Assembly (NCBI RefSeq): GCF_055900595.2
Contig: NZ_CM148325.1
Length of the DNA: 64,000 nt
Strand: one strand, 5' to 3'
Shown here: piece after piece, positions 47,415 to 52,928 of the stretch
Layout: each line of letters opens with the position of its first letter
How positions within the stretch are numbered: the stretch's first letter is position 1
The notes under the pieces: model-generated
The model's database searches: none
Told to the model about the DNA's origin: nothing
Seen by the model: only the letters and a program-made list of their open reading frames with translations
Position numbers and translations under genes: made by a program

Positions 47415-49001
47415 ATGGCACATCCACCACGGCTGAATGACGACAAACCGGTTATCTGGACGGTATCTGTAACGCGGCTGTTCGAGCTGTTTCGCGATAT
47501 CAGTCTCGAGTTTGATCACCTGGCGAATATCACCCCTATTCAGCTTGGCTTTGAAAAAGCGGTGACCTACATCCGCAAAAAACTGGCCAGCGAACGCTGC
47601 GACGCCATCATTGCCGCTGGCTCTAACGGTGCGTACCTGAAAAGCCGCCTGTCGGTACCGGTGATTCTGATAAAACCGAGTGGCTACGATGTGTTACAGG
47701 CGCTGGCAAAAGCCGGAAAACTCACCTCTTCTATCGGCGTTGTCACCTATCAGGAAACCATTCCGGCACTGGTAGCGTTTCAAAAAACCTTTAATTTGCG
47801 CCTCGACCAACGTAGCTACATTACCGAAGAAGACGCACGCGGGCAGATTAACGAGCTAAAAGCTAACGGCACCGAAGCGGTGGTCGGTGCGGGGCTGATT
47901 ACCGATCTGGCAGAAGAAGCCGGAATGACCGGAATTTTTATTTATTCCGCCGCCACCGTGCGCCAGGCGTTCAGCGATGCGCTGGATATGACGCGCATGT
48001 CGTTACGCCATAACACTCACGATGCCACCCGCAACGCCCTGCGTACTCGTTACGTGCTGGGCGATATGCTCGGTCAATCACCACAGATGGAACAGGTACG
48101 GCAGACTATTTTGCTGTATGCCCGCTCCAGTGCGGCGGTGTTGATTGAAGGGGAAACGGGGACGGGCAAAGAGCTGGCGGCCCAGGCGATTCATCGGGAA
48201 TATTTTGCCCGCCACGATGCGCGACAGGGCAAAAAGTCGCATCCGTTTGTTGCCGTCAACTGCGGGGCGATTGCTGAATCTCTGCTGGAAGCGGAGCTGT
48301 TTGGCTATGAGGAAGGAGCGTTTACCGGCTCGCGACGCGGAGGACGCGCCGGGCTGTTTGAAATCGCCCACGGTGGCACGCTGTTTCTTGACGAGATAGG
48401 CGAAATGCCGCTGCCGTTGCAGACCCGGCTACTGCGGGTGCTGGAAGAAAAAGAGGTCACTCGCGTCGGCGGGCATCAGCCTGTTCCGGTGGATGTGCGG
48501 GTTATTAGCGCCACTCACTGCAATCTCGAAGAGGATATGCAGCAAGGGCGTTTTCGCCGTGATCTGTTTTATCGACTGAGTATTTTGCGTCTGCAATTGC
48601 CGCCGCTACGCGAGCGGGTGGCGGATATTCTGCCGCTGGCGGAAAGCTTTTTGAAAGTGTCACTGGCGGCACTTACTGCGCCTTTTTCTTCCGCGTTACG
48701 TCAGGGATTACAGGCAAGTGAAACTGTGCTATTGCGCTACAACTGGCCGGGAAATATTCGTGAACTGCGCAATATGATGGAACGACTGGCGCTATTTTTA
48801 AGTGTGGAACCAACGCCGGATTTAACGCCGCAATTTTTGCAGTTGCTACTGCCGGAACTGGCGCGCGAGTCGGAGGAAACTCCCGCTCCACGTTTACTGA
48901 CGCCACAACAGGCACTGGAGAAATTTAATGGCGATAAAACTGCCGCGGCCAATTATTTAGGTATCAGCCGAACGACATTCTGGCGGCGGCTGAAAAACTG
49001 A
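47415..49001 (+). CDS. prpR: Sigma54-dependent transcriptional activator of the prp operon
   Basis: ORF 47403-49001; start set at [22 protein letters not shown]... giving 528 aa; AAA+ sigma54-interaction domain ([14 protein letters not shown]) and C-terminal HTH. Confidence 0.92.
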
Positions 49002-49004
49002 AAT

Positions 49005-49036
49005 GCCGAATCCAGCGCGAACGCCTTATCCGGCAT
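49005..49036. repeat. REP element between prpR and yahO
   Basis: GCCGAATCCAGCGCGAACGCCTTATCCGGCAT. Confidence 0.7.
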
Positions 49037-49098
49037 AAATTTCAATAGATGATCACCGATAAACTTACGCATCGGGCATGTTTACATGGGGTGCAGAA

Positions 49099-49374
49099 TT
49101 ATTTCTTCTTATAAATATTTGCCGTGCCGTGGATCTTATTGTCAGTTTGACCAGAGGTCAGCACCAACACATCTGCCCCTTTTTCATCCGCTTTTTTGAT
49201 CAGATCTTCTTTCGCATCTGCAGTCGACATTTCATTACTGGTTGAAATATCACCTATTTTTTCGTACTGCGATGCAACTTTTTCAAATTCCGCTTTGGTC
49301 ATTAATTCTGCGGCATAAACGTTGGTAACGGCAAACGCTAACGCACCGATTAACATTTTAGAGATTATTTTCAT
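49099..49374 (-). CDS. yahO: DUF1471-family periplasmic protein
   Basis: 91 aa with signal peptide [21 protein letters not shown]. Confidence 0.85.
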
Positions 49375-49558
49375 ATTACGGCTCCAGAGTTGTTATCAAA
49401 CTATCACCCACCCATATTATTGGGTTGATTAATAATTAGTTCAGTCAGGGCATAAACGCCAGTAACCGGAAATAAGACACTTTGTGATCTCTCTCGCATC
49501 CGATTACTTTTTGTAGAAATATGATGAAGTTACTTCACTTATTTATGGATCAAATCAC

Positions 49559-50191
49559 ATGGATCCCTTGCACGCCGTTTACCTGACCGTAGGACTGTTC
49601 GTGATGACTTTTTTTAATCCGGGAGCCAATCTTTTTGTGGTGGTACAAACCAGCCTGGCTTCCGGTCGACGCGCAGGAGTGCTGACCGGGTTGGGCGTGG
49701 CACTGGGCGATGCGTTTTATTCCGGGTTGGGTTTGTATGGTCTTGCGACACTCATTACGCAGTGTGAGGAGATTTTTTCGCTTATCAGAATCGTAGGCGG
49801 CGCTTATCTCTTATGGTTTGCGTGGTGCAGCATGCGCCGCCAGTCAACACCGCAAATAAGCACACTACAACAACCGATTAGCGCCCCCTGGTATGTCTTT
49901 TTTCGCCGTGGATTAATTACCGATCTCTCTAATCCACAGACCGTTTTATTTTTTATCAGTATTTTCTCAGTAACGTTAAATGCTGAAACACCAACTTGGG
50001 CACGTTTAATGGCCTGGACGGGAATTGTGTTCGCATCAATTATCTGGCGAGTCTTTCTTAGTCAGGCGTTTTCTTTGCCCGCTGTGCGTCGTGCTTATGG
50101 GCGTATGCAACGCGTTGCCAGTCGGGTTATTGGTGCAATTATTGGTGTATTCGCGCTACGCCTGATTTACGAAGGAGTAACACAGCGGTGA
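49559..50191 (+). CDS. yahN: LysE/RhtB-family amino-acid exporter
   Basis: 210 aa polytopic protein MDPLHAVYLTVGLFVMTFFNPGANLFVVVQTSLA... Confidence 0.85.
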   Translation: MDPLHAVYLTVGLFVMTFFNPGANLFVVVQTSLASGRRAGVLTGLGVALGDAFYSGLGLYGLATLITQCEEIFSLIRIVGGAYLLWFAWCSMRRQSTPQISTLQQPISAPWYVFFRRGLITDLSNPQTVLFFISIFSVTLNAETPTWARLMAWTGIVFASIIWRVFLSQAFSLPAVRRAYGRMQRVASRVIGAIIGVFALRLIYEGVTQR

Positions 50192-50316
50192 GCAGATAAT
50201 TTACTCTCTACGTAATCAACCTGATTTGCCGAATCCCGCTCATCGGCGATGATACCCCCCGTAATGCGTGGTCCTTATTTCCGATAAGTTTACTTGAGTC
50301 TTTAGCTTCCCATTTC

Positions 50317-50346
50317 AGCCCACTCTCCCCTGTGTGGGCTTTTTTC
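50317..50346 (+). terminator. Rho-independent terminator-like hairpin AGCCCAC-N10-GTGGGCT followed by TTTTTT
   Basis: 7-bp GC-rich stem plus T6 run on the plus strand, about 125 bp after the yahN stop. Confidence 0.5.
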
Positions 50347-50417
50347 ATTTGTCTGCTTCAGTGAGTAGCTGGCCATGCTCCATCCACTCTGCAAGGATGA
50401 TAATAAGAGGATCTGAT

Positions 50418-50600
50418 TCAGAAGAGTTTTGAAAAATTGGACCGCCATCGAGGCCTCGAACCCCGTACCATACAACAATCCTGGTTGTCGTCTGCTCTTC
50501 CTGATGAGCTAATGGCGGTTTGTGATATGAGCCTTACAGCATATTGTCTGTCAGGCTTGAGTGCGATGCGTAAGATACAGAAAAGACCCCACACAAACAT
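50418..50600 (-). CDS. Hypothetical small protein (60 aa) in a low-GC intergenic stretch
   Basis: Track ORF only; no recognisable motif; may correspond to the yahM position or be spurious. Confidence 0.2.
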   Translation of the reverse strand: MFVWGLFCILRIALKPDRQYAVRLISQTAISSSGRADDNQDCCMVRGSRPRWRSNFSKLF

Positions 50601-50820
50601 GATGGAATTATGATTTTTTTCATATGAATGTCAACCAACACATTCATAAAACACTCGCACAAGTTCACTTTTTAAGCAACATGACGCCGATCACAACAAA
50701 ATATCGGCGAAAAAGGAGGGTAAATGCCATTTGACGTAGAGATAAGCAGATGAAATGATTACCCGCTTTGCGATTCACTCTCTGATGGAATAACAAATTG
50801 GAGATGGAAAAGTTTCTAAA

Positions 50821-51636
50821 CTAAAGAGTGTAGCGTATTTTAACGTGCTTATTTACAGGATAATATTTGTCACCTAATTCCTGCACTCTATTAGATACCC
50901 ATTGATTTAATCGTGCATCATCTCTGTATGTTTTCACGTTCAGAACGGAGAGCAATAACATCACTAGCGATTCAGGAAAAACAGGGTAAATATTTTTTAA
51001 GTGCAATAATAATTCATACGCAAGCGCCTGCTTAATAGGTGCGTCTGCATCCGGAATGCGCGACATTTCGCGAAGCCATTTTTCTACATGCTCACATTCT
51101 TTCCCTTCACGGAAAAGTCTCAACAAAGGCATATGGTGCTCAAGAAGAATGCATTTGCAATCTGTTCGTACTGAATCGATAAACTGCACTAATTTCTTAA
51201 GTCCGGTGAAGCGTCCGGCATGGATATTCTCTTTAATATCAAGAAACACGTCATCCTGATCATATACCCAAACGGTCCCTTTTTGATTTTCAAGTATCCG
51301 AAAAACAAACTTAATCGGGTAATCAGGGTAATCCACCCAGTCATAAACTCCAGGGAAATCATTAAACTGCACATTTATGGTAAGCGCATTGTCGGCTGCC
51401 CACTCGCAATCTCGTACGGCAGCCATGAGATAAATGAGTTTATCATCATCGACTAAATCATCACGACAATCATAAGGATAATCATAGTATTGTTTAATCA
51501 AAACCTTGAATATATCGACACAAGAAACCAGTGTACTTCTGATATCTTCAGGTAACTGATTGTTTTTAAACGTATTGTGTACGCTTTGTTTCGTATATAG
51601 CAACAAATTATTGTGCGGCGCTTTTAATGGTATCAT
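50821..51636 (-). CDS. yahL: Uncharacterised protein YahL
   Basis: 271 aa ORF in an AT-rich stretch; no domain recognised by eye; synteny between yahN and yahK. Confidence 0.75.
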   Translation of the reverse strand: MIPLKAPHNNLLLYTKQSVHNTFKNNQLPEDIRSTLVSCVDIFKVLIKQYYDYPYDCRDDLVDDDKLIYLMAAVRDCEWAADNALTINVQFNDFPGVYDWVDYPDYPIKFVFRILENQKGTVWVYDQDDVFLDIKENIHAGRFTGLKKLVQFIDSVRTDCKCILLEHHMPLLRLFREGKECEHVEKWLREMSRIPDADAPIKQALAYELLLHLKNIYPVFPESLVMLLLSVLNVKTYRDDARLNQWVSNRVQELGDKYYPVNKHVKIRYTL

Positions 51637-51805
51637 TGCGATCTCTCTTAAATAAAAATAAACGTCGCAGATAATAAAGCCCTGATTAAACCAGGCACTA
51701 TCAGAAATCGCTCATAACTAACGAGTGAAGTATTGTGTACTGGAGGGAGTTATTTTAACAATTTGAATTTACGTTATAGGTTTTACCGCTACTTTGATAT
51801 TATTT

Positions 51806-51839
51806 CGCTCTCCTTAACTAAAAAGTTAAGTGGAGAGCG
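51806..51839 (-). terminator. Hairpin CGCTCTCCTTAACT-AAAAA-GTTAAG-TGGAGAGCG downstream of yahK
   Basis: About 13-bp imperfect stem, 40 bp 3' of the yahK stop on the minus strand. Confidence 0.4.
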
Positions 51840-51878
51840 AAGTTAATATGTTAAACCACAGGGTATTTATTAATTGTT

Positions 51879-52928
51879 TCAGTCTGTTAGTGTGCGATTA
51901 TCGATAACAAAACGATATTTCACATCTCCTCGCAGCATTCGCTCATAGGCTTCATTAATTTGATCGGCCCGAATCATCTCTATATCAGCCACGATGCCAT
52001 GTTCGGCGCAAAAATCGAGCATCTCCTGTGTTTCTGGAATGCCGCCAATCATAGAGCCGGCTATCGCGCGGCGTTTCATGATCAGGTTGAAAACTTCCGG
52101 CGATTTATGCGGTGTCGCAGGCGCACCAACCAGCGTCATGGTGCCATCGCGCTTCAGCAAGGTGGTAAAATCGTCGAGATTATGTGGCGCAGCTACGGTA
52201 TTCAAAATGAAATCGAAACTCTTCACATGAGCCGCCATCTCATCGGCATTGCGCGAGTTAACAACTTCATCGGCCCCAAGGGCTTTTGCCGCTTCGCGTT
52301 TTGACTCAGACGTGGTAAACGCCACTACATGCGCCCCCATCGAGTGGGCCAGCTTTATCCCCATATGCCCCAGACCGCCAATGCCGACCACTCCCACTTT
52401 TTTACCCGGCCCGGCCTGCCAGTGACGCAGCGGCGAGTACGTGGTGATCCCTGCACACAATAAAGGCGCCACCGCCGCCAGTTGCGCTTGCGGGTGACGA
52501 ATACGCAGAACATATCGCTCGTGAACGACAATCTGTTGTGAGTAGCCGCCCAGCGTATGGCCCGGTTCGTCCGGCGTCGGCGAGTTATAGGTGCCGGTCA
52601 TGTGATCACAGTAGTTTTCCAGCCCGTCTTCACACTCTTCGCAATGTTTACAACTGTCGACAATGCAGCCGACACCGACCAGATCGCCCGGCGCATATTT
52701 TTCTACCTGATCACCAACGGCTACCACGCGCCCTACAATTTCATGGCCCGGCACGCAGGGATAAACCGTCCCCGCCCACTCGGAACGGACCTGGTGGATA
52801 TCGGAATGGCAGACGCCACAGTAAGCGATTTCAATTTTGACATCATGCGGTCCCGGTTCACGCCGGGTAATATCCATCGGTTCCAGCGGTTGTTTAGCGG
52901 AATATGCACCAACAGCTTTGATCTTCAT
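51879..52928 (-). CDS. yahK: Zinc-dependent NADPH aldehyde reductase
   Basis: 349 aa MKIKAVGAYSAKQPLEPMDITRREPGPHDVKIEIAYCGVCHSD... with GHEIVG zinc-ADH motifs. Confidence 0.9.
   Translation of the reverse strand: MKIKAVGAYSAKQPLEPMDITRREPGPHDVKIEIAYCGVCHSDIHQVRSEWAGTVYPCVPGHEIVGRVVAVGDQVEKYAPGDLVGVGCIVDSCKHCEECEDGLENYCDHMTGTYNSPTPDEPGHTLGGYSQQIVVHERYVLRIRHPQAQLAAVAPLLCAGITTYSPLRHWQAGPGKKVGVVGIGGLGHMGIKLAHSMGAHVVAFTTSESKREAAKALGADEVVNSRNADEMAAHVKSFDFILNTVAAPHNLDDFTTLLKRDGTMTLVGAPATPHKSPEVFNLIMKRRAIAGSMIGGIPETQEMLDFCAEHGIVADIEMIRADQINEAYERMLRGDVKYRFVIDNRTLTD

Follow-up and report, generated by a model that had tools for sequence, protein, structure and literature searches.

In the window, by which we mean the whole 64,000-nt stretch of DNA analysed here, the 5' end of yahN lacks a single T relative to Escherichia coli K-12. 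The missing T is a genuine, inherited and rare E. coli yahN allele, and we consider it likely that the deletion lies in the 5' untranslated region (UTR) of an intact yahN whose true start is the ATG at 49559, the 223-residue start annotated in K-12 being over-extended. In the explanation that we favor, the 49559 ATG would be the start codon in the window strain, and most likely in K-12 too, giving a protein of 210 aa, and the K-12 annotation would probably reflect the choice of the longest open reading frame (ORF). The upstream ATGATG would belong to TATGAT, the -10 element of a class II CRP-dependent promoter, and would lie outside the mRNA made from that promoter. This mRNA would begin near 49532, leaving a 5' UTR of ~27 nt in which the deletion falls between a GGA motif and the ATG, with little or no effect on the protein. 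The features to which we refer are as follows.

49099-49374, minus strand: yahO, DUF1471 periplasmic protein, divergent neighbor of yahN (ORF listing and annotation)
49483-49498, no strand assigned: CRP-binding site TGTGATCTCTCTCGCA, centered at 49490.5 in the yahO-yahN intergenic region; the same 16-mer is found in ETEC ChIP-seq data
49520-49525, plus strand: candidate -10 hexamer TATGAT, 21 nt after the CRP site, holding the first ATG of ATGATG
49521-49586, plus strand: 21-codon ORF MMKLLHLFMDQITWIPCTPFT (ORF listing), most likely not a gene
49532, plus strand: predicted transcription start, +1 (about +/-1 nt), 7 nt from the -10 hexamer and placing the CRP site at -41.5
49547-49549, plus strand: weak Shine-Dalgarno motif GGA serving the 49559 ATG, 8 nt from it, with an anti-Shine-Dalgarno pairing energy of -3.1 kcal/mol
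49558-49559, plus strand: junction left by the missing T (1-nt deletion) in comparison with K-12, BL21 and Escherichia outgroups (alignments)
49559-50191, plus strand: yahN coding sequence, 210 aa, LysE/RhtB family, intact (ORF listing and profile match)

The missing T and the conservation of the ATG at 49559

The ORF opened by the ATGATG at 49521 ends at 49586 and is offset by one base from the yahN frame at 49559-50191, exactly as the original prediction had described it. In K-12 MG1655, yahN (b0328, NP_414862.1) is annotated with 672 nt and 223 aa and the N-terminus MMQLVHLFMDEITMDPLH, in agreement with the earlier arithmetic of 13 upstream codons plus 210. Alignment to K-12 and BL21 revealed that exactly one base is absent from the window, a T between C49558 and A49559: the junction reads ATCACTATGGATCC in K-12 and BL21 and ATCAC-ATGGATCC in the window, that is, ATCAC[T]ATGGATCC with the T gone. 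The 1-base indel suspected near 49557-49559 is thereby confirmed, and it is the loss of this T that splits ATGATG from the main frame. The first 13 codons of the 21-codon ORF correspond by homology to the N-terminal extension annotated in K-12, which spans 39 nt, or 13 codons, and gives the long form the N-terminal peptide MMQLVHLFMDEIT. K-12 yahN is thus an orthologue in the same yahO-yahN-yahM-yahL setting, whose annotated start lies 39 nt farther upstream and is out of frame in the window through the missing T.

To place the two candidate starts in a broader context, we compared 37 orthologous yahN loci from species-representative genomes of at least 10 genera, comprising Escherichia spp., many Citrobacter, Salmonella enterica arizonae/diarizonae, Edwardsiella, Trabulsiella, Yokenella, Pluralibacter, Serratia sp., Enterobacillus and Edaphovirga. 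The equivalent of the 49559 ATG, followed by (D/E)P(L/F/I)HA, was present in every one of the 37 loci, and the 13 upstream in-frame codons were open and homologous in only two, both E. coli-like. Nearly all loci outside E. coli proper carry in-frame stops in the upstream stretch, and in a few Citrobacter loci this stretch is open yet unrelated in sequence. In E. albertii and two cryptic-clade Escherichia, the interval between ATGATG and ATG is longer by one base, which places ATGATG out of frame. Because the stretch is stopped, unrelated or out of frame elsewhere, the open 13-codon extension is, on these alignments, a peculiarity of E. coli sensu stricto. The indel does not fall in demonstrably coding sequence, in that the 39-nt frame is not kept outside E. 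coli proper.

A comparison of 15 sampled yahN alleles within E. coli gave a consistent picture. In the 39-nt extension, SNPs occupy three columns, each of which falls on a first codon position and alters the amino acid (Q/K, V/L and E/Q). Two independent 1-nt deletions also occur there, namely the T missing from the window and a TTT to TT change in OSUCMP42NDM. In the 630-nt body, 44 of the 61 variable sites are at third positions, 42 codons vary only synonymously as against 16 with amino acid changes, and the only indel is one in-frame 3-nt insertion, with zero frameshifts. The substitution patterns of extension and body differ at a Fisher p of about 0.027, a value based on small numbers (three SNP sites on the extension side). 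Judged by these patterns of variation, the body is a constrained coding sequence and the extension does not behave like one. The TTT to TT deletion (locus L007, ~1664; window-equivalent ~49541-49543) occurs in an otherwise typical allele and was also seen in S6aCHROMc and possibly one further genome; PGAP annotates the OSUCMP42NDM yahN with 210 aa. The in-frame insertion, which extends the body to 211 codons, was observed in AVS0096 (L045) and A1.S1.65 (L046).

A candidate class II CRP promoter and the probable site of translation initiation

Class II CRP-dependent promoters, such as galP1, carry a CRP site that is centered at -41.5 and overlaps the -35 region. The CRP-binding site in the yahO-yahN intergenic region has a single mismatch to the two pentamers of the consensus TGTGA-N6-TCACA. 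A ChIP-seq study of ETEC H10407 reports the same sequence, TGTGATCTCTCTCGCA, among its high-confidence CRP sites and assigns it to yahN/yahO (PMC4287617), and from this identity we infer that CRP occupies 49483-49498 in the window strain. TATGAT is the only plus-strand -10-like hexamer between the CRP site and the ATG; if it is the -10 element, the CRP site is centered at exactly -41.5, in class II geometry, and yahN transcription would start near 49532. In K-12 coordinates (NC_000913.3, minus strand), 49521 and ~49532 correspond to 346337 and ~346326, respectively.

This arrangement is conserved well beyond E. coli. Applying a criterion of at most two mismatches within 95 nt of the ATG, we identified a CRP-like site ahead of yahN in 28 of the 38 sequences compared (the 37 orthologous loci and the window). 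At 27 of these 28 loci a -10-like hexamer (TATGAT, TAAGAT, TAGGAT, TATAGT, TATTAT, TATCAT or TATTCT) stands exactly 21 nt after the site, any other offset being found at no more than five loci, and the sequence of the 21-nt spacer is thoroughly diverged among the loci with a CRP-like site. The module is also present where yahO is not the neighbor, as in C. amalonaticus, C. sedlakii, Enterobacillus, Serratia sp., Pluralibacter, Yokenella and Trabulsiella, and this persistence argues that it belongs to yahN. The yahN candidate would share with class II promoters such as galP1 the -41.5 position of the CRP site; its -35 element is poor and its geometry is conserved across genera. Transcription of yahN would then depend on CRP, and the site might also serve the divergent yahO.

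The candidate TATGAT promoter was missed by a simple sigma-70 scan because a -35 element is absent, as expected of a class II promoter. The scan did recover a 9/12 match, TTATCA-16-TATTAT, at 49393-49420, with three matches against 1.7 expected, which is not significant. On the yahO side, a minus-strand AATAAT at 49416-49421 marks a possible yahO promoter, for which the CRP site would lie at ~-81.5 in a class-I-like position, and in E. coli CRP may also, or instead, act on yahO from there. Neither the Cappable-seq supplements, near the predicted coordinates, nor Kim 2012 contained an entry for a yahN transcription start.

We then considered how ribosomes would select between the two ATGs. The GGA motif pairs no better before 49559 than ~36% of random positions do, and the window shows no Shine-Dalgarno pairing ahead of 49521 (dG +0.2 kcal/mol). 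The annotated K-12 start is preceded by a weak GG with -2.8 kcal/mol, and pairing energy therefore fails to discriminate between the two starts of K-12 (-2.8 vs -3.1 kcal/mol). The sequence ATGGAT, which encodes Met9-Asp10 in the annotated K-12 protein, is replaced at the same position in other genera by AGGGGA, GAGGA, AAGGGA, AAGGA, AGGTGA or GAGGGA; the Shine-Dalgarno sequences of these genera lie 7-10 nt before the conserved ATG and reach -4 to -7.5 kcal/mol.

Direct information on initiation comes from INRI-seq, an in vitro profiling method that uses synthetic transcripts of K-12 5' regions (PMC9825163). In that study, the sole alternative yahN site is the in-frame ATG at +39 nt (Met14), classed as 'identified' with a peak of 83.8 and four replicates, and the annotated ATG has peaks of 92-128 in five of five replicates (PMC9825163). 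The two signals are comparable, and ribosomes can initiate at the 49559-equivalent ATG in vitro. This answers the question, posed with the original prediction, of whether the 49559 ATG is served by ribosomes: a weakly pairing GGA is present, and initiation occurs at the K-12 equivalent. The INRI-seq tables also quote in vivo Ribo-RET values (Meydan), and for either yahN ATG the value is 0 (PMC9825163), which we attribute to the gene being silent under standard laboratory conditions. YahN is absent from the TRAINSPOTTER N-terminomics data, and nothing was found in a search for relevant literature linking yahN with LysE or ribosome profiling.

Could YahN nevertheless start at ATGATG? Under this alternative, the true protein has 223 aa, the deletion frameshifts its first 13 codons, and translation restarts at Met14 to give a truncated but probably functional protein, with a 21-aa leader as a by-product. 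Both K-12 and PGAP annotate the long form, most E. coli genomes by far keep its frame uninterrupted, and the in vitro initiation at the annotated ATG in all five replicates (PMC9825163), the weak GG before it and the possible promoter-like match upstream at 49393-49420 are all compatible with it. The in vitro signal, which shows that ribosomes can bind the annotated ATG on an RNA that carries it, is the strongest argument for this alternative. These observations are outweighed by the stopped or out-of-frame extension in nearly all species beyond E. coli proper, including E. albertii, by the exclusively non-synonymous SNPs and two independent frameshifts within it, and by the coincidence of ATGATG with a -10-like hexamer kept at class II spacing from the CRP site. 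In addition, at 210 aa the protein is already as long as its family requires, and the INRI-seq templates, being synthetic T7 transcripts, include ATGATG wherever native transcription begins (PMC9825163). We therefore regard a native start at ATGATG as unlikely. Points against the 210-aa model are that more than 99% of E. coli genomes keep the extension open and that the Shine-Dalgarno motif before 49559 is weak.

The start at 49559 remains our preferred reading, since its ATG is found in 37 of 37 loci, the extension is unconserved, ATGATG lies within a -10-like hexamer and INRI-seq places initiation at +39. In vivo, the 49559 ATG would then be used exclusively. By the same evidence, the proposal that the deletion truncates YahN by resetting its start to an internal Met is probably wrong. 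The original prediction had allowed that a K-12 start equivalent to 49559 would speak against truncation; biologically, K-12 likely does start there, although its annotation begins upstream. The deletion shortens the distance from GGA to ATG from 9 to 8 nt, and we would expect it to be neutral or nearly so. We rejected an effect on leader RNA folding, as loss of the T leaves the predicted structure unchanged (-7.7 vs -7.6 kcal/mol, with the same fold and similar accessibility).

Should a transcript begin farther upstream, a proteoform of 223 aa could also be made. In a wider version of this idea, YahN of E. coli sensu stricto would carry a translated, lineage-specific 13-residue extension and exist as two proteoforms, of which the window lineage would have lost the long one through a second deletion and would instead translate a 21-codon upstream ORF overlapping the yahN start; we consider this improbable. 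If true, the extension would have arisen by a 1-nt deletion that brought the ATGATG of the -10 box into frame, expression would come from an additional upstream promoter, and the 21-codon upstream ORF could modulate yahN translation in the window lineage.

The 210-residue product and its family

To determine whether the 210-aa ORF represents a complete protein, we searched it against family profiles. The match to TIGR00949 (2A76) scored 230.8 bits against a cut-off of 183.95, with residues 20-202 covering positions 1-185 of the 185-position model, and residues 7-204 align with positions 4-204 of the full-length RhtC model (206 positions). The ORF thus passes the curated cut-off for LysE/RhtB membership over the full model, and its N-terminus is complete by comparison with members of 206-212 aa. 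These matches are consistent with YahN being a LysE/RhtB-family putative amino acid exporter, as the K-12 annotation words it. Relative to RhtC, RhtB and LeuE, the characterized E. coli exporters of the LysE superfamily (206-212 aa), the 210-aa YahN belongs to the same family by profile (TIGR00949, NF007591, NF008201 and NF007812) and is of normal length, but it falls far under the equivalog cut-offs (101 vs 288 for RhtC), a shortfall that marks it as a member of a distinct subfamily.

The 210-codon body is 95.4% identical to K-12 at the DNA level. It differs at 29 nt, of which 25 are at third codon positions, and by five amino acid changes, all conservative; within the deletion lineage, three of four yahN differences are at third positions. 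We found no signs of decay in the ORF, given its full profile coverage and the predominance of third-position differences from K-12.

These results bear on a further alternative, in which yahN is pseudogenizing in the deletion lineage, the frameshift having abolished expression and left the 210-codon ORF as an undecayed relic. In this lineage the neighboring yahM carries a frameshift flag, and yahN is silent under standard laboratory conditions. Moreover, AVS0096 yahN has a premature stop at codon 154 and carries a pseudogene flag, so that the gene is dispensable in at least some strains. Against this, every lineage member inspected carries an intact ORF, the divergence of this ORF from K-12 and within the lineage has the third-position bias and conservative replacements described above, and promoter, Shine-Dalgarno motif and start codon are all kept. 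We judge pseudogenization to be very unlikely.

Distribution of the deletion allele and its surroundings

We then asked how widely the deletion is shared, using a 54-nt junction-spanning query for which every 28-mer seed was forced across the deletion junction. The query hit exactly 18 of 5,426 complete E. coli genomes. All 18 share at least 99.0% identity with the window across 49380-50250, at an equal length of 871 nt, and identity over this interval is 100% in Z0117EC0005 and six other complete genomes. The remaining ~5,170 genomes are 94-96% identical to the window there, and those sampled are nearly all one base longer. Two sub-alleles of the deletion allele are distinguished at 49552, with C, as in the window, in 8 of the 18 genomes and G in 10. 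The sources span dog, human, cattle, goat, pig and food, from Korea, France, USA, China and elsewhere, and were sequenced in different projects. The T is still present in E. albertii and cryptic-clade Escherichia (AAATCACTATGGA), which indicates that the deletion is derived within the allele lineage.

In the four deletion-allele strains inspected (Z0117EC0005, EC42405, 2013C-4282 and WL297), PGAP/RefSeq annotates yahN as a 633-nt coding sequence of 210 aa from the 49559-equivalent ATG, with no pseudogene flag. The corresponding proteins, WP_032302514.1 and WP_000371335.1 ('LysE family transporter'), come from the same deletion allele and show no difference of substance from the window. The allele is thus already known, and RefSeq correctly annotates its yahN with 210 aa. 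Single-base indels are the commonest type of assembly error, and the original prediction had raised a homopolymer or sequencing error as a concern, but a base-calling or assembly error in the window's assembly is virtually excluded by the identical deletion in 18 independent complete genomes, with two sub-alleles and varied hosts, countries and projects, and by the flanking C and A, which form no homopolymer.

The surrounding sequence has features of its own. The prpR-yahO-yahN-yahM-yahL-yahK stretch (48858-52900) is 92.5% identical to K-12 over 4 kb, which is unusually diverged for E. coli and suggests a divergent or recombinant haplotype. Within it, yahL (50808-51607) is 87-92% identical to K-12, and a 40-nt gapped segment lies at ~50648-50807. 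In the deletion lineage, yahM (50208-50448, minus strand) is disrupted by a small replaced segment, especially at ~50355-50385, with a net change of -5 nt relative to K-12, and PGAP flags it as 'frameshifted' in the four lineage genomes inspected. Frameshifts in yahM also occur in two unrelated strains, AVS0096 and WGS1363, and suggest that the gene is under weak or no coding constraint. The current K-12 annotation includes, as a recent addition, the small gene xtpA (b4845, 'putative transcriptional regulator') across the yahM start (L003 2253-2435; NC_000913.3 345252-345434), corresponding to ~50430-50610 on the minus strand of the window.

The biological weight of the deletion itself is small, as it represents a natural allele of a poorly characterized and usually silent exporter gene. 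For the reference, our analysis indicates that the yahN start of K-12 is probably 13 codons too long, with an annotated start codon that overlaps the apparent -10 box of a conserved class II CRP-type promoter. A revised start would be relevant to cloning, tagging and modeling YahN, and to comparing 'truncated' alleles among strains. The locus also illustrates how, when a reference gene is annotated from its longest-ORF start, harmless 5'-UTR indels of other strains come to resemble truncating frameshifts.
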